Below, in pieces: positions 2,229 to 22,188 of a DNA stretch of 26,709 nt. The stretch is from a virus. Taxonomy: Duplodnaviria; Caudoviricetes. The notes beneath the pieces are model-generated. The model made no database searches. It was not told where the DNA came from and worked only from the letters and a program-made list of their open reading frames with translations. The DNA is taken from the IMG/VR virus record IMGVR_UViG_3300032247_000246, positions 1 to 26,709 of that record; one strand, written 5' to 3'. Numbering within the stretch: position 1 is the first letter of the stretch; every line of letters starts with the position of its first letter. Position numbers and translations under genes: made by a program.

Positions 2229-3170
2229 ATGGCAAACTATTCATTCCTTACAGACAATATTAATATAGCAAGCACTATAGTTGCATCTAATGCTGCTATA
2301 ACTGATCGCATGTATGCGAATGGATACTTCTATGCTAACGGTGCGCCAATAACACAGAGTGTATTTTCTAATATAACTGTACTTGGTACTATCACTGGCA
2401 ACTCGATTGTCAGTAATGGTTCTATCTTTGCGACCTCTATAAATTCGACAGGATCGATATTCGGTTCTTCAGTAAACGTAACAGGATCTATATATGGATC
2501 TACTGTAAACGTATCGAGTATTTCTACACCAAGTGGTAATGTAATTACGTTTCCACAAACAACTGGTGCAATCATTACATCTAATGATTTTGGTACAATC
2601 ACCAATTCGATGTTGGCAAACAGTAACGTTAGAATTAATGGGACTACAGTTTCCCTTGGCAGCAGTTACACTTTACAAACATTAACTCTCGGTACTGGAT
2701 TAACAGGCACTTCTTATAATGGATCAACTGGAGTTTCAACTGGAATAGATTCGTCTGTTGTTGCAACATTAACAGGATCTCAAAATCTAACTAATAAAAT
2801 AGTTACATCATTAGCAAACTCAAGTACCATATTAGATTTTTCTGGCAATGCATGGCAGTTTGGTTTTAGAAACATGCCTCAGAGTACAACTTCATCAGGC
2901 AATCTGGTACTAGGAGACTCTGGTAAACATCTTTATGTCAGTTCAGGTATTACCGTGCCGCCGAACTCTTCTGTGCCGTTTGAGATTGGTACTGTCATCA
3001 CAGTAGTCAGTAATGCAACATCACTAACTATTACACAAGGTTCTGGTGTTACATTAAAATTCACAAACACTGTTAACACAGGTAACAGAACTCTTGCATC
3101 GAATGGTATCGCAACACTTATGAAAGTTGCAACTGATACGTGGTATATTTTTGGAATAGGATTAACATAA
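2229..3170 (+). CDS. Short tail-fibre-like protein with a conserved C-terminal domain shared with 19853..21490
   Basis: S/T/N/G-rich with fibre motifs (ITNSMLANSNVRINGTTVSLG, VATLTGSQNLTNK) and 11-aa repeats; C-terminal ~100 aa (2874-3170) aligns with 21170-21490. Confidence 0.7.
   Translation: MANYSFLTDNINIASTIVASNAAITDRMYANGYFYANGAPITQSVFSNITVLGTITGNSIVSNGSIFATSINSTGSIFGSSVNVTGSIYGSTVNVSSISTPSGNVITFPQTTGAIITSNDFGTITNSMLANSNVRINGTTVSLGSSYTLQTLTLGTGLTGTSYNGSTGVSTGIDSSVVATLTGSQNLTNKIVTSLANSSTILDFSGNAWQFGFRNMPQSTTSSGNLVLGDSGKHLYVSSGITVPPNSSVPFEIGTVITVVSNATSLTITQGSGVTLKFTNTVNTGNRTLASNGIATLMKVATDTWYIFGIGLT
2385..2516 (+). repeat. Four degenerate 33-bp (11-aa) tandem coding repeats
   Basis: GTITGNSIVSN / GSIFATSINST / GSIFGSSVNVT / GSIYGSTVNVS, starting at 2385, 2418, 2451 and 2484. 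Confidence 0.7.
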
Positions 3171-3171
3171 T

Positions 3172-5289
3172 ATGTCTGGTTTTGCAGGAATGTTTGCTGC
3201 TGGTGGATTAACTAGTGTTGTTGCAACTGGTGGACAAACAATATATGATGGTACAGGTACATTAGCAGGTTATAGATTTCATGCATTCACTGCAAACGGA
3301 ACTTTTACTGTTACTAGTAATGACGCGGGTAAAACATTTGATGCCGTACTAATTGGAGGTGGAGGTGGAGCAGGCCAATATGGAGCTAATTTATATGGTG
3401 GAGGTGGAGGTGGCGGTGGTGCAGTCACAGAAGTTACCGGAATATCATTAAGCGTAAACACACCATATGCGGTTGTAATTGGTTCTGGAGGAACTCGGGC
3501 TACTCCGGCGCCAGGTGCTATTACAACTTCTGGTTCAGCATCAACTTGGAATGGATACAGCGCCGCTGGAGGAATAAGAGGAACAGGAAATGTGACCGGT
3601 GGAGCTAGTGGAAATGGAAACGCTGGAGGTCCTAATGGTGGACAAGGCACACCATTAGGAAGTGGATACGTTGGTGGTGGTGGTGGCGGATCAGGTGGTC
3701 CAGGACTTCCTGGTGCACCACCAGCAAATGCACCAACCACACCAGTACCAGCGCCAGGAGATGGACCAGTTCCATCATGGTTAAATGGTGGCGGAGGCCC
3801 AGGTTACACATCAGTTATCGACGGTAATCCATATGGCGCTGGTGGTGGTGGTGGGCCCAATTCAGGTAATGTCGTTAACGCTTATACTCCTACTCTAACT
3901 GCATTTAGTAAAATAACATATAGTGTAATATACGGAAACGAATTCATTCCAGGAGGTGGTGGTTTTGCTGCCACTCCTGGAATAAATGGAAAAGGTGGCG
4001 GCGCTGGGGGGCAAGCGGGTGGACCACCATCATATTTTAATCAATACTATGATGGCGGTTCTGGTAGAGTAACAATCAGATATCCATACATAACGGCACC
4101 AGGTGAACCAACTAATGTAACAGCAGTCGGTGGAAATGGACAAGCAACAATCACATTTACTCCACCAGTGGCTGATGGAGGTAGTTCAATACTAGATTAT
4201 ACTGTAACTTCATCGCCAGGAAATATTACCGCAACAGGATCTGGATCGCCTATAACAATCACAGGTCTAACTAATGGAACCACATATACTTTTAGAGTTA
4301 AAGCGAGAAATGATATAGGTTCTAGTTTAGATAGTGGCGCAAGCAATTCAGTAATTCCTGGCGTAGCTTCTAATACATTCAGTGTTATAGCAACAGGTGG
4401 GCAAACAATATATGATGGTACTGGCGCATTCTCTGGATATAGATTCCACGTATTTACTGCGAATTCAAATTTCACTATTACTAATAATCCAACAAATAAA
4501 ACATTTGATGTCGTAATAGTAGGTGGTGGTGGATGTTCTGGATTATTTGGACCGATTACGGAAGGAGGTGGTGGCGGTGGAGGAGGCGCAGTCACAGAAG
4601 TTACATCATTATCTTTATCATCAAATACTAGTTACGCAGTAATAGTTGGTGCAGGAGGTACACAAAGTCCGGGCCCTACATTTTCACCAACGCCAGGAAG
4701 CAATCCAGGTATTGCTTCTATTTTCTTCGGGTACAAAGCTGCTGGAGGATTAAGGACAAACAACGTTTCCGGTGGAGCAAGCGGAAACGGAAATGCTGGC
4801 GGTGCGGTGCCAGCTGGTAATTCAGGCAGTCGAAATGGAAGTGGAGGTGGTGGTGCAGGCGGAGCAGGACTTGTACATAGAGATTGGGGACCAATAGGTT
4901 CTCCACCAGCGTATCTGGTACCAATTTATACTCCTCGTTTTTCAGCAGGAAATTTTCCTACTCCATATGCAACATATTATGCAACAGGTCGTTATAATGG
5001 AGGTGGCGGTATTGGATATACATCAGTTATCGACGGTAATCCATATGGCGCTGGTGGTGGTGGCGGTTATATAAATAATCCTCCTTTACCAGCTTATTGG
5101 AACGGTTTGTATACACCAGAAGCTGTTCCGAACGCCGATACTCTTTTCACTAGTGGTGGCGGTGGTTTGGCTGGAGCTCCAGGAGTGGCTGGAAAAGGTG
5201 GTGGTGCTGGAGGAATGATAAGCGGTACTCCAAATCAATTTATTGATGGCGGTCCTGGTACAGTAGTAATTAGATATCCTTATCCATAA
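3172..5289 (+). CDS. Glycine-rich adhesin-like protein: two duplicated Gly-rich domains flanking an Fn3 domain
   Basis: Domain 1 (~3223-4089) and domain 2 (~4390-5286) both begin ATGGQTIYDGTG..GYRFH.FTAN and end GG.G.V.IRYPY; Fn3 at ~4093-4359 (APGEPTNVTA...DGGS.ILDYTVT...GLTNGTTYTFRVKARN). Confidence 0.8.
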   Translation: MSGFAGMFAAGGLTSVVATGGQTIYDGTGTLAGYRFHAFTANGTFTVTSNDAGKTFDAVLIGGGGGAGQYGANLYGGGGGGGGAVTEVTGISLSVNTPYAVVIGSGGTRATPAPGAITTSGSASTWNGYSAAGGIRGTGNVTGGASGNGNAGGPNGGQGTPLGSGYVGGGGGGSGGPGLPGAPPANAPTTPVPAPGDGPVPSWLNGGGGPGYTSVIDGNPYGAGGGGGPNSGNVVNAYTPTLTAFSKITYSVIYGNEFIPGGGGFAATPGINGKGGGAGGQAGGPPSYFNQYYDGGSGRVTIRYPYITAPGEPTNVTAVGGNGQATITFTPPVADGGSSILDYTVTSSPGNITATGSGSPITITGLTNGTTYTFRVKARNDIGSSLDSGASNSVIPGVASNTFSVIATGGQTIYDGTGAFSGYRFHVFTANSNFTITNNPTNKTFDVVIVGGGGCSGLFGPITEGGGGGGGGAVTEVTSLSLSSNTSYAVIVGAGGTQSPGPTFSPTPGSNPGIASIFFGYKAAGGLRTNNVSGGASGNGNAGGAVPAGNSGSRNGSGGGGAGGAGLVHRDWGPIGSPPAYLVPIYTPRFSAGNFPTPYATYYATGRYNGGGGIGYTSVIDGNPYGAGGGGGYINNPPLPAYWNGLYTPEAVPNADTLFTSGGGGLAGAPGVAGKGGGAGGMISGTPNQFIDGGPGTVVIRYPYP
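3808..3851 (+). repeat. 44-bp perfect direct repeat, copy 1 (copy 2 at 5020-5063)
   Basis: acatcagttatcgacggtaatccatatggcgctggtggtggtgg is identical at both positions. Confidence 0.9.
5020..5063 (+). repeat. 44-bp perfect direct repeat, copy 2 (copy 1 at 3808-3851)
   Basis: Identical to 3808-3851; encodes TSVIDGNPYGAGGG. Confidence 0.9.
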
Positions 5290-9200: not shown

Positions 9201-9358
9201 CTATTCTTGGTGGTGGCACTAACAACTTATGTCCAACTACTTCTGCAAACTTGTATCCTGATGGTCCTGACATTATTACTATTTGTGCGACTAACGTGAC
9301 TGGTGTTACGACCAATTCGATTCTTGCTAGAATCTCCTGGACAGAAGCACAAGCATAA
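6260..9358 (+). CDS. Large virion structural protein (tail/baseplate-fibre associated) with inserted small beta-domains
   Basis: 1032 aa, Thr/Ser/Gly-rich; blocks KLRVSTPQSLIDTDFEYG, QTRRQFRYQSGKG, RVGMFDNQNGFFFEFDG, WNIDKMDGTG, WYGAGAIRFG recalled from environmental T4-like phage structural proteins; repeated AT.TT...HGL..G..V.V.G...NG modules. Confidence 0.7.
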   Translation: MAKHVILESYTFTPSTRTIVVTGKNIRREQLLLITNTSTGTVLYNFSDPALGATSYVNAVDATSGTETTTIVLAYNTSAMSATDKVSILVEEIYHEIIPSEVMRDPVDKLRVSTPQSLIDTDFEYGQQPTKWESINLLNNRASAFYDPTITSVISAMTASSTTVSVTLQSYTASTGVVTAAIVSTITGIGSTAGLYPGAQLIKQSGTGTFGAGAVATVLSVDSATQITVQTSAAMTTGALVFTLAMPSVGQPIFVQGTLDVANADGWWLCTSSNTGTGVFQYVTISTPAAALYDSSKTYVYYGNFYTGAAIPCGTTAIVTDGTRATVTTTYAHGLRIGDSVFIVGTSTNTALNGNYVVERTLTTNTFTFLTAVGAATHTTTNSAGTIFPRPLGYVQHRPFDGGVQFSNVSPFHGYQVIRQTRRQFRYQSGKGIQFSTGSILKPAVFLEGITSSGTVATITTKYTHGLLPGSYIKVSGVTAGTSTTLLDGYYNGTFLVTAVTPLTISYAMSGTPTNSTATGFPLTANPASWYGSTNRVGMFDNQNGFFFEFDGQNIYCVKRSSTTQISGNIAINSGSNAVTGTSTRFSSQLKPGDYVVIRGMSYLVQSITSDTAMTVYPEYRGGTNITNTVVSKTVDTRYVQSSWNIDKMDGTGSSLMNIDLTKMQMFYIDFTWYGAGAIRFGFKNNRGEVVYCHRIPNNNVNTEAYMRSGNMVGRYETNTLTPYTYLTSTLPSAQTSLMSVNDVSAFPPAGTIVITQPGDTGNVIEYIAYTSKSSSNTGNTLIGLTRNVQNISITGAGTAAGGNASATSFTFSATAPTKVELYGPSQASSISHWGSSVIMDGRFDDDKSLVFVGGMNRTQTISNIGQDVVVPLVSIRIAPSVDNGLTGPLGTRDIINRMQLVMRSLSTFTTGTGITFLMTLRLNGRVSAGQFTSVGGSSLSQIAVHGSGTTITGGETVYGFYSTSGISTEDLNQVRDLGTSILGGGTNNLCPTTSANLYPDGPDIITICATNVTGVTTNSILARISWTEAQA

Positions 9359-9359
9359 A

Positions 9360-9602
9360 ATGTCATCAAGAGTCAGTCTCCAACATTTTGTTTCTACGAC
9401 GGAGCCCACCGGTGTTACGGTGGGCGACGAATGGTACAACCCTTCAACTGGTATTCTATATAAAAGAATAGCATCATCTCTTGGTGTTCAGTGGGTTAAC
9501 ATTTCTGGACTAGGATCAACGACATCAACGTCGAGTGGGACTATTAGTGCATCGTCGCAGGCCAAAATAACTGGCATATCTTTAGTATTCGCGGGAGGTT
9601 AA
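9360..9602 (+). CDS. Small fibre-like protein (80 aa)
   Basis: ATG at 9360, just after the stop at 9358, is preferred over the listed upstream start at 9303; fibre motif PTGVTVGDEWYNPSTGILY; hydrophobic C-terminal ISLVFAGG. Confidence 0.65.
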   Translation: MSSRVSLQHFVSTTEPTGVTVGDEWYNPSTGILYKRIASSLGVQWVNISGLGSTTSTSSGTISASSQAKITGISLVFAGG

Positions 9603-9603
9603 A

Positions 9604-9957
9604 TTGGCAGCACCAAATATATTCGGAGCAACAACATGTAACGGCAAGACTGCTGTGTTGATTGTTCCAGCAACAGCAACTGCGATACTTACTAATGCAG
9701 CATCTAGTAGTAAAGTTCTTAAAGTCAATGCACTATATGTAAGTAATGTTGACGGTACGACTAACTATACTCTCAATATGGACATCCTTAGATCAAGTGT
9801 CGCATATAGAATTGGTTTTGCGATAGTAGTACCAGCAGCATCTACACTAGATGTTATTAACAAACCTCTTTATCTAGAGGAGGGTGACGTTCTTCGATTG
9901 ACTGGTAGCACAGCGTCTAAACTAGAAGCAGTATGTTCATATGAGGACATCAGTTAA
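9604..9957 (+). CDS. Small conserved phage virion/adaptor protein (MAAPNI... type), TTG start
   Basis: GGAGG RBS at 9594-9598; motifs AAPNI...GKT, NAASSSKVLKVNAL.VSNVDGT, YLEEGD.L, LEAVCSYEDIS typical of small proteins that precede adhesin genes; TAATG overlap with the next gene. Confidence 0.7.
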   Translation: MAAPNIFGATTCNGKTAVLIVPATATAILTNAASSSKVLKVNALYVSNVDGTTNYTLNMDILRSSVAYRIGFAIVVPAASTLDVINKPLYLEEGDVLRLTGSTASKLEAVCSYEDIS

Positions 9958-12900
9958 TGAATCGAAGCAACGGAGGGTATATTGGCATTCTTAAAGAAGA
10001 TGCATCAGTATATCCTTTCTCTGGTGTTTATCCACTGTATGAGCATCAAGAGAATAAGTTAGCAGGTCTTTGGCCTGATAGAGCAGATGCCAGTTTTGCA
10101 AACACTTCTCTATTATTAAAAACAACTTCACAATCAACACGCAGCACAACTGTAATTGATTCGAGTGTTAATAACTTTGCAGTAACTAGAAGTGGTACAC
10201 CGAGCACGGGTTGGAATTCTCCTTATCAGACTCCAGGATATTGGAGTAATTATTTTGGTTCATCAACAGATAAGTTGAGTTTTGGCACATCTACTAATCT
10301 TGCACTTGGCGCTGGTGATTGGACTGTCGAGTGTTGGTACTTTCCTACCACAACTGGTGCTTATAGAACTTTATTTGATTGGAGAACTGCTGGATTTTCA
10401 CCTGCAGGAATTCCTGTAATATCTGTAAATCCAACAGATTTTCTTGTTGTAGATTTGCCCGGTGGAACAACGATTTTGACAAGCAGTATTGCTGTTACAT
10501 TAAACGCATGGAATCACATCGCTTATAGTCGATCATCCAACACGATTCGTGTTTTTGTAAATGGCGCGTTAGGTGGTAGTGTAAGTAATAGTACCAATCT
10601 TGGCATTGAAACATTTAGCATCGGATATACGTCAGTGCCGTATGGATATATCAGTAACGCAAGAATTGTCAAAGGCGTAGCGGTATACACTTCTAACTTT
10701 ACACCTTCAACTGCACCACTTACTGCAATATCTGGCACTTCTCTACTCACTTGTCAAAATAATAGATTCATTGATAATAGCACAAACAATTTTGCAGTCA
10801 CATTAACTGGTACTCCACAAACAACATCTTATTGGTATCCTAGTACATTTTCTGCGCCTGCTGCCAGTGTTGGTGGTGGGTATTTTAATGGTACAACAGA
10901 TTATTTGGCAACTCCGGCTAATGCGGCGTTTGCTTTTGGCACTGGCGACTTCACAGTAGAGTGCTGGATATTTATTACTTACCAACTTGGCACTGCGGGA
11001 CAGGGTAGAGGGGTATTAGTTTCAAACAGAAGTGCAGCATCGTCAAGTACTAGTTTGGTTTTGCAACATTATAACTCTAAAATATACTTTGGAACGCCTA
11101 GTACCGATTTAATTGCAAGTACTACTACATTAACCATTAACAATTGGACTCATATAGCCGTATCTAGAAGTAGTGGAACTCTTAGGTTGTTTGTAAATGG
11201 GGTATTAGACACAACAGTTGCAAGTAACATTACCAATTTTTCGGACACTAACGCATTTGCAATAGGTACAGATGGATTATATCTTGCTTATTATTTTACT
11301 GGACAAATATCCAATCTTCGATTAGTCAAAGGCACAGCGGTTTACACTGGCAACTTCACACCACCAACAGACTTTCTAACAACGACTGCTGGTACTTATC
11401 CAAGCACAGCGAACATAGTCACATCGATTGCATCATCTAATACTAGTTTATTATTAAATCTAGCAGATAGTAATTACACTTCTTTTGCTAATACATCTAA
11501 CAATAATGCGTTTATTGATAGTGGTCCATATGCTTTTCCTGTTACAAGATTAGGAACTCCCACTCAAGGTTCTATAACTCCGTATTGGCCTAATGGGTAT
11601 TGGAGTAATTATTTTGTCGCAAGTGCTGCATTATATAATGCCTCTGTTAGCAATATGTCTTTTGGTATTAGCACCAACTTTACTATTGAAGCATTTATTA
11701 ATTGGCCAGCAGCCGCTGCTGGAAATCAAACATTCTTTGAGTTGACCGGTACCACTAGAATGATTTTAGGACGCACAACTACAGGTACTAGAATATATTG
11801 GAATGGAACAGAAAAAGGAACAACTTACACGTTTACCCCTGGTACTTGGTATCATTTCGCAATAGTAAGAAATTCAGGAACGGTATATTGTTATATTAAT
11901 GGAGTTTCGGCTATAACTCCGTTCACAGAAACAGTAACATGGGCATCTACTAGATTTAATATTGGCATGAATAGTGATACTGCTGAACCAATGACTGGTT
12001 ATATAAGCAACCTACGTGTTGTTAATAACGTAGCAGTCTACACAAGTTCATTCATTCCACCAACAAATCCACTTGCGGCTACGCAAAGTGCTGGCACCAA
12101 TATCTCTGCAATTACCGGAACTTCTACGTCTTTGTTGACCTGTCAAAGTAATCGATTCATCGATAACAGTACAAGTAATTATACAATAACTCTTCAAACA
12201 GGAACAACAAAAGTTCAATCATTTCAGCCTTTCTCGCCGCCCACATCGTATACTCCTGCGGCGTATGGGGGGAGTGGATATTTTCCATTATCCCAATCAG
12301 ATTATTTGCAATTTCCAGTTAGTTCAGCCTTTGCTCCTGGCACAGGTAATTTCACTTTAGAGTGTTGGGTTTATGTTACATCACTTCCTGTTACTGACGC
12401 TTTTATTTGGACTCAATGTGTTAGCGGTACAAATTATTTTTTGTTTGGTTTTAATACTACTGCTTATTTCTATGCCACTTTAAGTGGTGGTGGAACACCA
12501 ATTAACGGACCCGCAAGTTCAATCTTATTGAACGTGTGGAATCATATAGCCGTTACTAGGGTTAGCGGAATTGTTAGAGTTTTTGTAAATGGAGTTTCCG
12601 GAACTCCAACCAGTAATACTACAGATTTATCGAATCTAAGTTATGTTCCGACTGTTGGTAGATATGCGTTTACAACCTCATATGGTTATTTTAATGGTTA
12701 CATGAGTAATCTTAGATATGTAAAAGGTGTAGCAGTATATACTGGTAATTTTACACCACCATCTTTAGGTTTATTAACAAATTCTGGATCAACAAGTGCA
12801 GTTGCTTATTCAAACACTGCTAACGTTAACACAGTTTTTGGATCATCTAGCACTTCGTTACTTGAAAACTTTTCAAATTTAGGTATCTATGATGCGACTG

Positions 12901-13463
12901 CTCAAAATGATTTAATATCAGTAAGTGGTGCTCAAGCAAGCAACACAGTAGTTAAGTGGGCTGGTTCAACTAGCATGAGATTCAATGGCAGTAGTGATTA
13001 TTTGACTATTCCAACTAACTCAGCATTAAATCTTGGTACAGGATCTTTTACTGTTGAAGCGTGGGTATATCTAAATGCAACTTCATCAGATTATTTTGTG
13101 ATAAGCGCCAGTGGAAGTGGAGGTGCGTTTTTTGGATTTACCAGCAGCACAAACATAGGTTATGGTCGCACAGCTGTTGCTTGGGATTATAATATAGCAA
13201 GTGGTATAATCCCAAAAGTTTGGTATCATCTCGCATGGTGTAGAAGTGGAACAAGTATGCGAATATTTGTTAACGGCACTCAAGTTGGAACAACACAAAC
13301 TACTTCACAATCATACGATTTATCTACTACCAGTACCAACGTTGGAAGTCAAGGTGCAAATTATTATTTAAATGGATACATACAAGATTTGCGTGTCACT
13401 AACGCGATTGCTCGATACACTGCAAACTTCACTCCACCGGTTTTACCATTTTTAACTTTGTAG
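9957..13463 (+). CDS. Five-domain LamG (ConA-like lectin) virion/tail-fibre protein (paralogue B)
   Basis: LamG-like domains at ~10236-10690, ~10878-11348, ~11595-12044, ~12276-12743 and ~12976-13420; N-terminal MNRSNGGYIG...WPD..D..FANT.LLLKTTSQ. Confidence 0.85.
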   Translation: MNRSNGGYIGILKEDASVYPFSGVYPLYEHQENKLAGLWPDRADASFANTSLLLKTTSQSTRSTTVIDSSVNNFAVTRSGTPSTGWNSPYQTPGYWSNYFGSSTDKLSFGTSTNLALGAGDWTVECWYFPTTTGAYRTLFDWRTAGFSPAGIPVISVNPTDFLVVDLPGGTTILTSSIAVTLNAWNHIAYSRSSNTIRVFVNGALGGSVSNSTNLGIETFSIGYTSVPYGYISNARIVKGVAVYTSNFTPSTAPLTAISGTSLLTCQNNRFIDNSTNNFAVTLTGTPQTTSYWYPSTFSAPAASVGGGYFNGTTDYLATPANAAFAFGTGDFTVECWIFITYQLGTAGQGRGVLVSNRSAASSSTSLVLQHYNSKIYFGTPSTDLIASTTTLTINNWTHIAVSRSSGTLRLFVNGVLDTTVASNITNFSDTNAFAIGTDGLYLAYYFTGQISNLRLVKGTAVYTGNFTPPTDFLTTTAGTYPSTANIVTSIASSNTSLLLNLADSNYTSFANTSNNNAFIDSGPYAFPVTRLGTPTQGSITPYWPNGYWSNYFVASAALYNASVSNMSFGISTNFTIEAFINWPAAAAGNQTFFELTGTTRMILGRTTTGTRIYWNGTEKGTTYTFTPGTWYHFAIVRNSGTVYCYINGVSAITPFTETVTWASTRFNIGMNSDTAEPMTGYISNLRVVNNVAVYTSSFIPPTNPLAATQSAGTNISAITGTSTSLLTCQSNRFIDNSTSNYTITLQTGTTKVQSFQPFSPPTSYTPAAYGGSGYFPLSQSDYLQFPVSSAFAPGTGNFTLECWVYVTSLPVTDAFIWTQCVSGTNYFLFGFNTTAYFYATLSGGGTPINGPASSILLNVWNHIAVTRVSGIVRVFVNGVSGTPTSNTTDLSNLSYVPTVGRYAFTTSYGYFNGYMSNLRYVKGVAVYTGNFTPPSLGLLTNSGSTSAVAYSNTANVNTVFGSSSTSLLENFSNLGIYDATAQNDLISVSGAQASNTVVKWAGSTSMRFNGSSDYLTIPTNSALNLGTGSFTVEAWVYLNATSSDYFVISASGSGGAFFGFTSSTNIGYGRTAVAWDYNIASGIIPKVWYHLAWCRSGTSMRIFVNGTQVGTTQTTSQSYDLSTTSTNVGSQGANYYLNGYIQDLRVTNAIARYTANFTPPVLPFLTL

Positions 13464-13472
13464 GCACAACAA

Positions 13473-16400
13473 ATGAATAGAGGAAACGGTGGTATTTTTG
13501 GTAAAAAGAATTCTACATCTCTTGTTGGTGGAATGTATTCATCTTACGAACAACAAGAGAAGAGTGCATCAGTATATTGGCCTTCTGGACCAGATTCGAA
13601 TTTTGCATACACACCACTACTTCTTAAGACTACATCACAAACATCACCAAAAACAACAGTAACAGATTCTAGTGCCAACAATTTGACTGTTACAAAATTT
13701 GGTACACAAAGTGTAGGATGGACTTCTCCTTATCAAGCAAGTGGATATTGGAGTAATTACTTTGGAGTTGCTAACGCAGACTACCTATCTCCTGCAAGTT
13801 CAGCGTCATTAGCTTTTGGTAATAATGCGTATACAGTTGAATTTTGGATTTTCATGTCATCTTATACCACGGGTAGCAACCGTGTAGTTGACTTGGGAAC
13901 ATCTAACAATTCGTTCGGTGTGCAGATTAATAATACCGGTACAGTTAGTGTTACAAAATATGGTGCCGTTGATGTTTTTACATCTACTGCTAGTTTTGTA
14001 GTAAATCAATGGAATCATGTTGCCGTTGTTAGAACAAGCACTGCAACTAATGGTTTAGCTATTTACTTAAATGGCACAAACATTGGAACTGGAACAGATA
14101 CAAATAATTGGACAGTAGTAACTACCCCGAGAATTAACGGACTAAGTGGCTTTAGTTTTGGTTGGACTGGATATCTTTCGAATTTTCGTATAGTAAACGG
14201 TACCGCAGTTTACACAAGCAACTTCACATCACCTAATGCACCACTAACATCAATATCAGGCACTGCTTTATTGACATGCCAAGATAATAGATTCAAAGAT
14301 AATAGCACAAACAATCTAACTCTAACTCCATCTGGTACACCACGAACGTTTTCTGATTGGTATCCAACTACATTCTCAGGACTCACTCCTAGTATTGGTG
14401 CATTATACAATGGATCTAAAACTGATACTCTGACTATACCAAATACGTCAGCAATAACAACACTCGCTGGTGATTTTACAATCGAATCTTGGGTATATCC
14501 AACAGACACAACTATGACTGGTGCTTGGGGATTGATTGAAACACGCACTTCTGGTCAAACCGCAGCGCCTTGGGCGTGGTCACTAGGGTATTCATCGCCT
14601 AGTTTCACTTCTGGATTTTTCACAGGGACGAGTTACGCTTTTACTCTAAGAGTTTTACCTTACGTTTGGTCACACATAGTTCTTCAACGTAACGGTTCAA
14701 CACTTAGATACTTTGTAAACGGTGTAGTTGATACAACATCTTTCAGTCTAAGTGGTACTATTTCTGGTGGATCTAGTACGATTTACATATCGAACACTAA
14801 AGACAATAATCTTGGAGGATACGGCACTGGTGGTTATTATTCTGATTTCAGAATAGTTAATGGCACTGGAGTTTATAACGTTACTGGATTTACACCACCA
14901 ACGTCCAAATTAACTGCTGTTGCAAATACAGTTTTACTTCTAAGTTTATCAGATGATAACAACACATCCATCACTGATGGTGCTAATAATAACGTCTTTA
15001 TCGATAGCAGTCCATATGCATTAACTCTAACCCGCAACGGAACTCCAACACAAGGTTCTTTTACCCCATATTGGCCTAATGGATATTGGAGTGTGTATTT
15101 TGGTGGGTCAGGTAACTATATGGTTACAAACACCGCCCCATTAGCAACAACAACTACTACATTTACTATCGAGTGTTGGATATATCCGACAGCAACTCCT
15201 GTTGGCGCCCAACCAGCGGTTATTGGTGATTTGCTAGCAACAAGCGGGTCCAACTTTTTATCTTTTGGACCACTTTCTTCAAATTTACTTCAATTATATT
15301 GGTATGACGGGGCGGGTAAAAGTTGTACTGGCAACACAACAATTTCATTAAACGCTTGGACGCACATCGCGGTGTCCGTCAATGCAAACGTAATAACTCT
15401 ATATGTTAACGGTGTTTCACAAACGCTTTCTGGCACAACTACGCTAACAAATAGGAGTTCTTCGTATAATTATTTTACGCTTGGGCAATCTAGTCCAAGT
15501 ATTTATTACACAGGCTATATTTCAAACTTGTCAGTGCTAAATGGCACGGCCAAATACAGTACTTCATTTACACCTACAACATCCCCGTTGAGTGTAAGCA
15601 CTACAAACCAAACGCTGTTGACTTGTTATAGCAATCGTTTTATTGATTCAAATACAGCCACAACAGCAAAAACTATAACGATCACCGGCATCCCAACCGT
15701 CCAAGCCTTCCAACCACTTCCTTCTAAGGTATACAGTCCATCACTGTATGGTGGAAGTGGATATTTTAATGGTAGTACAGATTCAGTATATACAAATCAA
15801 ACATTTTCATTAGCAACAGCGACCACTCCGTTCACGATGGAAGCGTGGGTAAACTTTTCATCTTTCAGTGGAGTAGCGATTGCATCGACCGCATATGCAG
15901 GCAGCGGAGCAATACCATTCATGATGGGAATGGCATCATCTTCTGCTTTTTCTAGTCCTGCCGCAACACCTATATTTGCATATTATAATGGTTCAGCGTG
16001 GACGGTCGCTGTTCAATCATCAACTAGTTTATCACTCAATACTTGGTATCATTTAGCATATGTATACACAGGATCAACTGCAACCGTATATGCTAACGGA
16101 GTTTCAATAGGATCTGCTTCAATATCATCATGGCAAACTACTGGTCAATCAGGTTTTTATGTAGGTAGACGATGGGATACTAATAATAGTGTTTATTTTA
16201 ATGGTTATATCAGCAATTTTAGATTAGTTATTGGCACAGCAGTTTACACGGGTACTTTTACTCCACCAACGTTAGCACCATTAACGTTCGATGGACAAAC
16301 TAGTGCAGCAAGTTATGCAAACACGGCTAACGTCAATACGAGTTTTGGTAAATCACAAACTGTTTTATTAACAAACTTTAATAATACTGCTATCTATGAT

Positions 16401-17051
16401 GCCACAAGTCAAAATGATCTAGTCGCTTTTAATACTCCACAAACTAGTATAGTACCGACTAAATTTCCATTAACGACAGTCATGAAGTTCAACGGTACTA
16501 GTGATTATTTAACTGCGCCAGTAATTCCATCGTATAGTTTTGGTACAGGAGATTTTACAGTAGAAGGATGGTTTTATTGGAATGCTTTTAGTGCAGACCA
16601 TTGGATGGTGGCATTAGGAACCGGAGTAAATGCAGGTGGTCCTTTTGCTGGTTGGGGATTACGATATAGTCCATTTGATTATGGTAATGCTGTTCTTAAC
16701 TTCACAAGATATGATGGTACAGAATATACCTATCAATTTTCTTTACCTTCCGCAAATTATCTTGTAACAGGAACTTGGTATCACATTGCTTGTACTCGAA
16801 GTGGCACTAATATCAGAATGTTTCTTAACGGTTCTCAAATTGGTGCTGCACAAACAAGTAGTGTTGCTTTTAATGCTGTGAATACTGACCCATTAATCAT
16901 CGGAAAATTTATAACGGGTCGATCTGGAAGTCCGTTTTATTTTAATGGGTATATGCAAGACATTAGATTTACTAAAGGCGTTGCCCGTTATATCACTAAT
17001 TTTGCAGTTCCTGTTTTACCATTTGGAACTTCTGGACGACCTTTATTTTAA
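13473..17051 (+). CDS. Five-domain LamG (ConA-like lectin) virion/tail-fibre protein (paralogue C)
   Basis: Same architecture as 9957..13463; domains at ~13743-14215, ~14398-14880, ~15081-15560, ~15759-16250 and ~16482-16995; N-terminal MNRGNGGIFG...WPS..D.NFAYT.LLLKTTSQ. Confidence 0.85.
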   Translation: MNRGNGGIFGKKNSTSLVGGMYSSYEQQEKSASVYWPSGPDSNFAYTPLLLKTTSQTSPKTTVTDSSANNLTVTKFGTQSVGWTSPYQASGYWSNYFGVANADYLSPASSASLAFGNNAYTVEFWIFMSSYTTGSNRVVDLGTSNNSFGVQINNTGTVSVTKYGAVDVFTSTASFVVNQWNHVAVVRTSTATNGLAIYLNGTNIGTGTDTNNWTVVTTPRINGLSGFSFGWTGYLSNFRIVNGTAVYTSNFTSPNAPLTSISGTALLTCQDNRFKDNSTNNLTLTPSGTPRTFSDWYPTTFSGLTPSIGALYNGSKTDTLTIPNTSAITTLAGDFTIESWVYPTDTTMTGAWGLIETRTSGQTAAPWAWSLGYSSPSFTSGFFTGTSYAFTLRVLPYVWSHIVLQRNGSTLRYFVNGVVDTTSFSLSGTISGGSSTIYISNTKDNNLGGYGTGGYYSDFRIVNGTGVYNVTGFTPPTSKLTAVANTVLLLSLSDDNNTSITDGANNNVFIDSSPYALTLTRNGTPTQGSFTPYWPNGYWSVYFGGSGNYMVTNTAPLATTTTTFTIECWIYPTATPVGAQPAVIGDLLATSGSNFLSFGPLSSNLLQLYWYDGAGKSCTGNTTISLNAWTHIAVSVNANVITLYVNGVSQTLSGTTTLTNRSSSYNYFTLGQSSPSIYYTGYISNLSVLNGTAKYSTSFTPTTSPLSVSTTNQTLLTCYSNRFIDSNTATTAKTITITGIPTVQAFQPLPSKVYSPSLYGGSGYFNGSTDSVYTNQTFSLATATTPFTMEAWVNFSSFSGVAIASTAYAGSGAIPFMMGMASSSAFSSPAATPIFAYYNGSAWTVAVQSSTSLSLNTWYHLAYVYTGSTATVYANGVSIGSASISSWQTTGQSGFYVGRRWDTNNSVYFNGYISNFRLVIGTAVYTGTFTPPTLAPLTFDGQTSAASYANTANVNTSFGKSQTVLLTNFNNTAIYDATSQNDLVAFNTPQTSIVPTKFPLTTVMKFNGTSDYLTAPVIPSYSFGTGDFTVEGWFYWNAFSADHWMVALGTGVNAGGPFAGWGLRYSPFDYGNAVLNFTRYDGTEYTYQFSLPSANYLVTGTWYHIACTRSGTNIRMFLNGSQIGAAQTSSVAFNAVNTDPLIIGKFITGRSGSPFYFNGYMQDIRFTKGVARYITNFAVPVLPFGTSGRPLF

Positions 17052-19852: not shown

Positions 19853-21490
19853 ATGTCAAGAACGCTTCAATTTAAAAGATATGCTAACACTGTAGTTGCA
19901 AACACAACTGGTGCTGCAGGTGAAATAATTATTGAAACAACTAACAATATTGTTACTGTGCATACAGGAGGTATTGCTGGTGGCGTTCGAATGGCATCTG
20001 AATCATATGTTAGAAATTCATCAAACACAAGAGTAAACAAGTCCGGCGATACAATGACCGGAAATTTAACTTTTAGTCGCGGTGGTGCAATATTAGGAAA
20101 TCTTGATCAAAATGAAATAACAATGACATCAAATGTTATTGATGATTGGACTGGTTTTTCTGCCTACGGTTATGGTGCCGCACAAATATATGCAAACACA
20201 TTTGTACAATTAATAGCAAACACTGGAGTTGGTGGCGCCGAAATATGGAATTTTAATACAGATGGAACAATAACATTTCCTGATAATACAATCCAAACAA
20301 CCGGTGCGAATGTTACTCCTGCTTTTAATAAAGCAAACTCTGCAAACGTACTGGCACAAACTGCATACAATCAGGGCAATATTGCATTCTCTCACGCTAA
20401 TGCTTCATTTAATTCAGCAAACACTATTGTTATGGTGAACGTATCGCAAAACAATTCTATCAATTTAGTTAGTAATACAGCACAAGCAGCATTTAATACT
20501 GCGAATACAGGATCAAATACAGCACAAGCTGCATTCAATACTGCGAACACAAAATTTAGTGCAAACGGAGGTACGATCACAGGTAATGTTTCGATTATAG
20601 GTGAATTGTCTATTTCTGGTAATGCAACAACATTCTCTTCTAATAATATTATTATAGATGATTCTATTATCTATATTGCAAATAACAACTCAGCAAATGT
20701 GATTGATATTGGCGTTGTTGGTCATTTCACTTCCGTAAGATATCAACACACAGGTTTAGTTCGCACTGCGTCTGATGGTAAATGGAAACTATTCAGTAAT
20801 GTTATTGCTGAACCCACATCAACTATTGATCTAACTAATGCTATATATGATGGATTAAAACTAGGAGTACTTGAGGCGGCAAATGTTATTGTTAACGGCA
20901 GTGATATTATATCGTTAACTCAAACAATTTTTAACACATCAAATAATGTTTCTAACAATACAACTTCAGCATTTATTGTTGCCAACAATGCATCGAATAA
21001 TTCTACTGCTGCATTCACAGTGGCAAACACAGCATCGAATAACGCTACTGCTGGATTTACAGTGGCAAACACAGCATCGAATAATGCCACGGCAGCATTC
21101 AGTACAGCAAACACAGCATCGAATAATGCGACGTTGGCTTTTGCTGCCGCCAACTCAGCAGCACAGACTGTTCCACAAAACGCACAGACAACAAACTATA
21201 CTTTAGTCGGATCTGATGCTGGTAAACATTTATATTACACACAATCAGCAAACGTAAACTTATATATTCCTTGGTCATCAAATGCTTCGTTTGCAAACGG
21301 CACTACAATTATGATTGTTTCTAGAACAACATCAAGTGCAAACGTGACTGTTACGCCAAACACTGGCGTTACGATGTATCTTGCTGGCAACACAACGTCA
21401 GCATCCCGCAACGTGACAACATACGGTATGGCTACTCTCATTCAAGTCGCTGCAAACACATGGATGATTAACGGCACTGGAGTAGTGTAA
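19853..21490 (+). CDS. Fibre protein with Mtd-N-like N-terminus, coiled-coil repeats and conserved C-terminal domain
   Basis: N-terminus LQFKR...TGAAGEIIIETTNNIVTVHTGGIAGG resembles the BPP-1 Mtd N-terminal domain; KSGDTMTGNL fibre repeat; 14-aa Ala/Asn repeats; C-terminus homologous to that of 2229..3170. Confidence 0.75.
   Translation: MSRTLQFKRYANTVVANTTGAAGEIIIETTNNIVTVHTGGIAGGVRMASESYVRNSSNTRVNKSGDTMTGNLTFSRGGAILGNLDQNEITMTSNVIDDWTGFSAYGYGAAQIYANTFVQLIANTGVGGAEIWNFNTDGTITFPDNTIQTTGANVTPAFNKANSANVLAQTAYNQGNIAFSHANASFNSANTIVMVNVSQNNSINLVSNTAQAAFNTANTGSNTAQAAFNTANTKFSANGGTITGNVSIIGELSISGNATTFSSNNIIIDDSIIYIANNNSANVIDIGVVGHFTSVRYQHTGLVRTASDGKWKLFSNVIAEPTSTIDLTNAIYDGLKLGVLEAANVIVNGSDIISLTQTIFNTSNNVSNNTTSAFIVANNASNNSTAAFTVANTASNNATAGFTVANTASNNATAAFSTANTASNNATLAFAAANSAAQTVPQNAQTTNYTLVGSDAGKHLYYTQSANVNLYIPWSSNASFANGTTIMIVSRTTSSANVTVTPNTGVTMYLAGNTTSASRNVTTYGMATLIQVAANTWMINGTGVV
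20471..20554 (+). repeat. Two 42-bp (14-aa) tandem coding repeats
   Basis: SNTAQAAFNTANTG / SNTAQAAFNTANTK, starting at 20471 and 20513. Confidence 0.85.
20939..21148 (+). repeat. Five 42-bp (14-aa) tandem coding repeats (first degenerate)
   Basis: Units at 20981, 21023, 21065 and 21107 read ANNASNNSTAAFTV / ANTASNNATAGFTV / ANTASNNATAAFST / ANTASNNATLAFAA; shared DNA core gcaaacacagcatcgaataa. Confidence 0.85.
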
Positions 21491-22188
21491 TGAGTGGTAT
21501 TATGGCTATGGCTGCCAGTAATGTGAAATCATCTAGAGTTGCTGCTTTGTCAGCAACTCTAGTGTACGATTTAGATGCTGCTAACTTTGCTGCTGTACCA
21601 ACTAATGGTTCATTAGTCAGTGGATTTACATTAACTGTTGCTAACTCTGGATCTTCTATTTCATATAGTAGTGCAAACGGTGGATCATTTGCTAAATCAA
21701 ACAGTGTTGGTACAGACTACATCTATGGTGGTCCAAGTTATGTAACTGGGCAAAGCTATTCTGTATTCATGGCATATAAACTATCTGCAACATCTTCTGG
21801 TAGATTATTAAACACTCAGAGTGAAGCATCAAAAGATTGGTTGATGGGTGCGTATAATGGATTTCCAAATACTTTCTATCCAAACTTTTCGGTTAATCTA
21901 CCATCATCAGGCGCAGATACAGTTTGGCATCTAGATTGCGCTACATGGGATACTACTACAAGTACGGGTAAACTTTACACAGCAACAAATACTGCACCAG
22001 GCGCTGCTGCTTATTCTGTGTCGAATGCTGGCGGTGGTGGATTTAATCAACTAAGATTATTCAGCCGTGCAGCAGGAACTGAAGTTCAATCAGGCAATAT
22101 TGGATTTGTTAAAGTATATAATGGTTTATTATCTCTTGCCGACATTCAATCATTACATGCTACTTATAAAACAAGATTTGGTTATTAA
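21490..22188 (+). CDS. Single-domain LamG/ConA-like lectin adhesin
   Basis: LVYDLDAAN, DTVWHL, GNIGFVKVYNGLLSLADIQ...YKTRFG are typical of phage LamG-type proteins; TAATG overlap with the upstream fibre gene. Confidence 0.7.
   Translation: MSGIMAMAASNVKSSRVAALSATLVYDLDAANFAAVPTNGSLVSGFTLTVANSGSSISYSSANGGSFAKSNSVGTDYIYGGPSYVTGQSYSVFMAYKLSATSSGRLLNTQSEASKDWLMGAYNGFPNTFYPNFSVNLPSSGADTVWHLDCATWDTTTSTGKLYTATNTAPGAAAYSVSNAGGGGFNQLRLFSRAAGTEVQSGNIGFVKVYNGLLSLADIQSLHATYKTRFGY

Follow-up and report, generated by a model that had tools for sequence, protein, structure and literature searches.

A C-terminal domain shared by two fibre genes of a T4-like phage fragment as a putative socket for the N-terminal peptide of the next gene's product

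Why would two fibre genes of one phage, unrelated over most of their length, end in the same domain and each be followed directly by a gene whose product starts with a similar short hydrophobic peptide? This question is raised by a stretch of 26,709 nucleotides, hereafter the window, which is a 26.7-kb fragment, 14% complete, of the virus record IMGVR_UViG_3300032247_000246 (Duplodnaviria; Caudoviricetes), a record that carries two copies of the domain. Here, we call the domain the socket, the peptide the plug, and the protein that begins with the plug the payload. The gene pair is real and very widespread and, with a probability of about 0.7, the domain would be a fibre-tip socket that docks the N-terminal peptide of the next gene's product. 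The two pairs consist of the following features (aa, amino acids):

2229..3170, + strand: fibre gene 1, 313 aa, with a low-complexity shaft and the C-terminal socket domain; no Pfam family
2874..3170, + strand: socket domain 1, about 100 aa, predicted beta-sandwich (XD1/gp9-type) ending at the stop codon; phrog_8780 at E 3e-6
3172..3207, + strand: plug peptide 1, MSGFAGMFAAGG, putative docking peptide; cross-validated profile score 17.4
3172..5289, + strand: payload 1, 705 aa, with a glycine-rich domain, Fn3 and a second glycine-rich domain
19853..21490, + strand: fibre gene 2, 545 aa, with Ala/Asn heptad-like repeats before the socket and a weakly Mtd_N-like start
21170..21490, + strand: socket domain 2; E 1e-41 to profile A2
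21490..21525, + strand: plug peptide 2, MSGIMAMAASNV, putative docking peptide; cross-validated profile score 9.6
21490..22188, + strand: payload 2, 232 aa, likely a concanavalin/LamG-like domain

The original prediction, made from the letters of the window, had proposed that the two fibres share a C-terminal domain behind unrelated shafts, and both points were borne out: residues 216-312 of the first align with residues 440-544 of the second (38 of 105 identical, 36%; E 1e-13), while every other segment of the two open reading frames (ORFs) gives E values of 11 or more. The start of the domain at base 2874, which corresponds to residue 216, agrees with the position proposed there, as does the tight coupling to the next gene, through a 1-nt gap in the first pair (start 3172) and a TAATG overlap in the second (start 21490). 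The downstream products, beginning with MSGFAGMFAA and MSGIMAMAAS, are indeed alike in their first residues only, their best mutual alignment having an E value of 2.0. Their labels as adhesins fared unevenly. Whereas Gly_rich_2 (twice, E 3e-19) and fn3 match payload 1 above the Pfam cut-off, the name of LamG lectin for payload 2 is likely rather than established, since its Laminin_G_3 match is sub-threshold (19.3 bits against a cut-off of 27.6; E 0.0013); an AlphaFold model of this payload was uninformative, with a mean predicted local distance difference test (pLDDT) score of 42. Within payload 1, which contains an internal repeat, no plug precedes the second repeat.

The socket reaches far beyond the window. 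A profile built from 96 rows matched 27,413 of 1.84 billion representatives of 50%-identity clusters at E <= 0.001, and 13,287 at 1e-10. The domain is also present in 84 of 50,697 phage records, including Gordonia, Brevundimonas and Synechococcus phages, where the annotation is mostly tail or fibre. Loci were gathered on the domain alone, with annotated records added; prophages are barely sampled, because the GTDB scan, run with a single protein query, contributed 2 loci. The domain ends within 5 residues of the stop codon in 623 of 634 closed matches in the loci; among the 150 best library matches, the same is true of 147. The shafts ahead of the domain fall into 31 single-linkage groups among 217. 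Neither Pfam nor NCBIfam has a family named for the domain, 27 of 30 ESM Atlas clusters carry no family, and the C-terminus of phrog_8780 ('minor tail protein') matches it weakly. Sequence searches of the PDB returned nothing below E 0.07 for socket 1 and nothing for the domain profile, while payload 1 and fibre 2 gave no relevant entry. The family Phage_depo_C (PF25692) was tried and rejected, since nothing in the window matches it at E <= 1 and 0 of 96 family members do. Tandem socket arrays were seen in P0001, P0002, P0003, P0006 and L444, with up to 22 matched stretches in one protein of 3206 aa.

What follows the socket is equally regular. The class I plug has the consensus M[ST]G[IAV][LQ]Q[ALG]L[LAI][AG], after which a linker of small residues begins; conservation stops near residue 10-12, and the peptide has no basic region and some eight apolar residues interrupted by Gln or Gly. 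The next start lies at -4, -1 or +1 from the socket stop in 186 of the 228 unique loci with room for it. Peptides were scored with a profile trained by leaving out one cluster at a time, and the threshold was the 95th percentile of 557 background coupled starts. In this forward direction, the peptide passes in 181 of 234 socket-selected loci, or in 48 of 64 clusters at 70%, against a background of 5%; among held-out loci, 53 of 65 pass. Both plugs of the window score well above the background 95th percentile of 1.9 (17.4 and 9.6, with the profile trained without their own socket cluster) and, under the full peptide profile, the two plug genes rank as the top two among the window's ATG-started frames of at least 90 aa. 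The reverse direction used a peptide-only DNA pattern, whose 120 matches reduce to 77 non-redundant ones. Directly behind the domain lie 59 of these 77. Of the other 18, 12 do not start a gene, 4 have the socket some 2.1 kb further upstream, and for 2 the upstream DNA is too short. Thus, the check set by the original prediction, a conserved N-terminal peptide downstream of homologues, holds, and the peptide stands in front of unrelated domains. Pairs of this kind occur in siphoviruses, in a T7-like podovirus and in T4-like contigs, and in the cultured Synechococcus phage S-CBS2 they correspond to gp52/gp53. Synonymous codons within the peptide vary freely, Ser2 being drawn from both codon families, and because the residues are kept all the same, selection acts on the protein.

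The diversity of the payloads is considerable, with 52 single-linkage groups among 170 complete ORFs (plug-selected loci included). Pfam was run on 60 of 120 payload cluster representatives, a choice made by eye so as to lower the share of glycine-rich ones, and named 29 of them, of at least 11 kinds: LamG (9), Gly_rich_2 (8), fn3 (3), RCC1 (2), DUF7483 (2), and GP38, ALK_LTK_GRD, SBBP, Lcl_C, GLEYA and ILEI (one each). The remaining 31 have no family, and no depolymerase family appears among the 29 named ones. In the GP38-family payload (L026), GP38 begins at residue 16, behind the plug. Since the LamG-like domain of the payload 2 type also occurs internally without a plug (L081 and L114), the peptide is not part of the payload fold.

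Evidence that socket and plug interact comes from relatives of pair 2 in which the plug gene is missing. Three residues of socket 2 matter here:

21470..21472, + strand: Asn-6, counted from the C-terminus; changes when the plug gene is absent
21428-21430, + strand: Met-20; changes when the plug gene is absent
21374-21376, + strand: Met-38; changes when the plug gene is absent

Among 52 unique relatives occupying one T4-like gene slot, 29 have the plug gene and 22 do not, L118 being left out; 8 of the 52 rows were classed by reading the next gene. Of the plug-less relatives, 21 of 22 run straight into the terminase gene. Asn-6 is kept in 29 of 29 sockets with the plug gene and in 2 of 22 without it, Met-20 in 29 of 29 against 5 of 22, and Met-38 in 28 of 29 against 7 of 22, while the plug-less sockets keep their fold core (median retention of 95% over 57 conserved columns). 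Socket residues -6, -20 and -38 therefore shift when the plug gene is lost. Between presence and absence of the plug there are 9 switches on the socket tree and 12 on the terminase tree, both unrooted, and loss is taken as the direction of change because of L118. There, behind 692, the plug gene has shrunk to 50 codons although its peptide is complete and the socket keeps its residues, probably through a recent loss. In plug-less relatives the Asn-6 codon is replaced by ten different codons, which argues against a single spreading haplotype. A 98%-complete relative carries one socket and one plug.

The plug also follows the socket rather than the payload. The identity between peptides is 0.60 for the nearest socket with an unrelated payload and 0.20 for the nearest payload with a distant socket, with 37 wins and 2 losses for the socket in 41 comparisons. 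Sockets ending in G-x-G-x-x go with class I peptides 218 times and with class II peptides 3 times, whereas those of the sister clade ending in G-D-L go with class II 56 times and never with class I. As there are only two clades, this match is best described as lineage-specific peptides and not as co-evolution. Other starts seen in the G-D-L clade (L422-L664) include a Lys/Arg-rich leader ending in NDFL[EQ]P (23), a WGQG leader (13), the start ML..W.SSKG (10) and a 106-aa protein (6), and some of its sockets have no conserved leader behind them. The original prediction had spoken of a universal socket, which is too strong, given that the sister clade goes with other leaders and that the peptide subtype follows the socket lineage; because socket lineages carry their own peptide subtypes, docking is likely semi-specific. 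The two sockets of the window differ at all three plug-responsive sites (F/I/L in socket 1, N/M/M in socket 2), so the suggested cross-mounting of the window's two adhesins may be disfavoured.

A second C-terminal family, ending in DGT[NS]W[YF]G and followed by MF[SA].. leaders, was encountered in L317 (2528-2992, - strand), L374, L040, L075 and L001; its homology to the socket received an hhalign probability of only 3.9%. In L001, L040 and L075 the usual pairing is found. L317, in turn, has a class I socket followed by a gene with another leader, and a class I plug behind the different domain family, a crossed order that, as a single case, fits addressing by peptide and not by gene order.

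What could such a domain look like? The AlphaFold model of socket domain 1 (pLDDT 94) is a beta-sandwich whose best structural match is the C-terminal knob of Pa223 gp52 (9NY6; Z 9.9, root-mean-square deviation (rmsd) 3.2, 94 aligned, 10% identity), followed by KP1 gp10 residues 90-197 (Z 9.5, rmsd 2.8, 92 aligned), the C-terminus of Solidus gp83 (Z 9.0), CpaA (Z 8.0), CBA120 TSP4 residues 60-181 (Z 7.9, rmsd 3.3, 92 aligned) and StcE (Z 6.9), the next, unrelated rows having Z scores of 5.0 or less. Matches to this XD1/gp9-middle/CpaA-StcE fold thus span Z 6.9-9.9 over 82-94 of 105 residues, and Foldseek agrees with the XD1-type matches (E 3.5e-5 to 9e-4). The socket is accordingly predicted, from the model, to adopt the XD1-type fold of T4 gp9/gp10. 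For TSP4 and gp10, the best alignments cover XD1 and, with one row per entry, no XD2 or XD3 range is among the matches. In the TSP4 work (PMC8825819), XD1 lies between Gly79 and Gly179, is grouped with T4 gp9, gp10, CpaA and StcE, and is termed a spacer whose function is not understood; its termini are on opposite faces of the trimer, and it is XD2 and XD3 that are credited with binding partners. The same account of XD1 is given in PMC10253068. Because XD1 chains begin and end on opposite trimer faces, the distal face would be free in an XD1 that closes the protein.

The preferred reading can then be put as follows. A hydrophobic peptide of about 10 residues would bind the XD1-type domain at the tip of a presumably trimeric fibre, and would hold there a separately made, predicted host-binding protein. 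The initiator Met, which methionine aminopeptidase removes ahead of a small residue, would be lost, leaving a small N-terminal residue, and the peptide may form a short amphipathic helix on the distal face that touches residues -6, -20 and -38. New payloads would be gained by recombination just behind the peptide. The name of fibre for 2229..3170 is itself one that we infer from gene context and from the annotations of homologues in cultured phages. A broader version is tentative, and we would sooner bet against it than for it: XD1 would rank with the most frequent fibre-tip sockets in phages of water and soil, its lineages would read N-terminal address peptides that are orthogonal to one another, phages with several fibres would sort their adhesins in trans by this peptide code regardless of gene order, as the crossed order in L317 suggests, and any domain behind a 12-residue tag could be displayed.

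Several observations weigh against docking at the fibre tip. In 53 of the 234 socket-selected loci no scoring peptide stands behind the socket, a simple hydrophobic-Gly class II leader follows only 42 of 159 G-D-L sockets, and the domain is also found internally and in tandem arrays. The 22 plug-less T4-like sockets persist with an intact core and no adjoining plug gene, so the domain can be maintained in the absence of the plug; 10 plug-less contigs, which are only 7-30% complete, contained neither an orphan plug nor a second socket. Asn-6 is retained in 2 plug-less rows, and independent pairs are few (5 on the socket tree, p 0.06; 6 on the terminase tree, p 0.03). At the level of clusters, the tracking of the socket by the peptide comes down to 8 positive cases, 2 negative and 1 tie in 11 clusters, with a contribution from physical linkage, and the match between clade and peptide amounts to two switches on the tree (p 0.5). 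For socket and peptide columns, mutual information over 269 pairs (about 108 effective) reached a best z of 4.7, with no control and no clear contact. The terminal Gly codons of the socket coincide in part with the ribosome-binding site ahead of the payload gene. Published XD1 domains are without a protein partner, and the same fold is termed glycan-binding in CpaA and StcE (PMC8825819, PMC10253068). No virion proteomics for any socket-plug pair was found in the literature. A complex prediction with three copies of the socket and peptide 1 (residues 2-31) scored 0.02 with its controls not folded, and so speaks neither for nor against docking.

The alternative that survives best, still an unlikely one, is that the domain is a glycan-binding or trimer-capping knob, that the peptide attaches the payload to a different protein of the virion, and that the two genes are mere neighbours in a host-range cassette. 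The best fold matches speak for it, since those of Pa223 gp52 and Solidus gp83 are C-terminal knobs and CpaA and StcE join them, and so do the persisting plug-less sockets and the tandem arrays. Pa223 gp52 has a trimeric C-terminal knob on a fibre-like protein, as is presumed here, and the available parts of its description (bioRxiv 10.1101/2025.06.11.659172) present a homotrimeric spike and mention no bound partner. However, a receptor knob would be expected to vary independently of its neighbour, whereas the three sites stay constant only in sockets that have the plug gene behind them, and the siphoviruses, T7-like podovirus and T4-like contigs that carry the pair would seem to share no obvious other virion partner.

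Less probable again is a contact that is real but transient, in which the downstream protein or its peptide would aid the folding or assembly of the fibre, like T4 gp38 or Tfa, without becoming a lasting part of the virion. Fibre chaperones are typically small genes tightly coupled behind a fibre gene, a layout that the present pairs share. Yet the payloads, which reach 755 aa, come from 11 or more unrelated Pfam families, most of them binding folds, whereas a chaperone would be one conserved fold, and fibres persist without the downstream gene. T4 gp38 is described as a chaperone in PMC6851490.

That the peptide has no binding role at all, being kept by stop/start translational coupling or as a weak export or membrane signal, is very improbable: even though nearly all offsets are -4, -1 or +1 and Shine-Dalgarno-like words lie over the last codons of the socket, residues are kept while synonymous codons vary, Met-20 and Met-38 are far upstream of the ribosome-binding site, only 14 of 328 other tightly coupled genes in the same loci fit the pattern (by a descriptor chosen after seeing the data), plugs also stand on genes not adjoining a socket (L292, L317), and the peptide, with no basic region and a short, interrupted run of apolar residues, is unlike Sec signals. 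As for L292 (305-2146; also L342, L361 and L196), a protein of about 600 aa separates the socket gene from an RCC1-like gene that bears a plug; by eye, this protein resembles a fusion of sulfotransferase, TPR and glycosyltransferase parts.

How far is docking at the fibre tip a new arrangement? For this domain-peptide family, the original claim of an undescribed system stands within the literature searched, where no description of the pair was found, most subscription papers and supplements lying outside its scope; nor does the pair appear in the available parts of PMC12143355, 10.64898/2026.05.12.724579, PMC9942802, PMC8651126 or the Pa223 preprint. The claim does not extend to the principle, for which Klebsiella phages supply the proof: in KP32, docking of a conserved peptide on a branching domain was demonstrated by deletion and calorimetry (PMC13352976). 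This class comprises the Klebsiella phages KP32, K11 and KP34, as well as the K1-5/SP6 adaptor and G7C gp66-gp63.1 (PMC13352976), and as in the present pairs the second protein starts with a short conserved peptide. However, the KP32-type domain is of the XD2/XD3 type, sits right behind the N-terminal anchor and precedes an enzymatic domain (PMC13352976), whereas the domain of the window genes is C-terminal and its best alignments to TSP4 and gp10 are to XD1. The partner also differs, being a depolymerase tailspike in the KP32 type, and Gly-rich/Fn3 and LamG-like payloads in the window.

The other comparison is with the gp37 trimer and gp38 of T2, T6 and S16 (PDB 6F45), where, as here, a separate adhesin gene lies directly behind the fibre gene. 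A glycine-rich adhesin in this position is shared by pair 1 and not by pair 2. In S16, gp38 docks through a three-helix domain with three Trp on the beta-helical end of gp37 (PMC6851490), unlike the leader of about 10-12 residues described here, in which Trp never ranks with the six most frequent residues over positions 1-18, and the payload here can be any of many folds. Contrary to gp37 proteins with a cleaved intramolecular chaperone, neither fibre has such a Pfam match, and both end in a predicted beta-sandwich. The system thus works like that of KP32, is laid out like gp37-gp38, and fails tested features of both. From the published phage XD1 domains (CBA120 TSP4, T4 gp9/gp10), which are internal and described as partnerless spacers, the socket differs in being terminal and paired with a peptide gene, at identities of 14-25%.

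If docking at the tip is true, it would assign a function to a domain that some 27,000 protein clusters carry without annotation, and give the XD1 fold a binding role. The first 12 residues would also flag many 'hypothetical' genes as fibre-tip receptor-binding proteins, which would be useful for host prediction in uncultured phages, where separately encoded adhesins get missed, as a 2026 atlas points out (10.64898/2026.05.12.724579). The idea is directly testable, given cultured carriers, a domain of 100 residues with three candidate contact sites, and a peptide of 12.

Elsewhere, the window contains T4-like neck, tail-stabiliser and terminase genes, with a run of fibre- or lectin-like genes ahead of them. 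Fibre gene 2 sits between a gp15-type tail gene and its plug gene, the small terminase gene coming next, and its Mtd_N match (19868..19969; E 0.0011) is under the cut-off. In S-CBS2, the start of gp52 (L680:1688-2806) resembles that of fibre 2, and the gene adjoins one annotated as head decoration; because of this neighbour and the Mtd_N-like start, some socket-bearing fibres may sit on the head and not on the tail. A second adaptor-and-leader-like arrangement is present in the window, where a short gene with a hydrophobic tail end (9303..9602) and a 117-aa phrog_1276 gene (9604..9957) are followed by two large LamG genes (9957..13463 and 13473..17051) with the common leader MNR.NGG..G...

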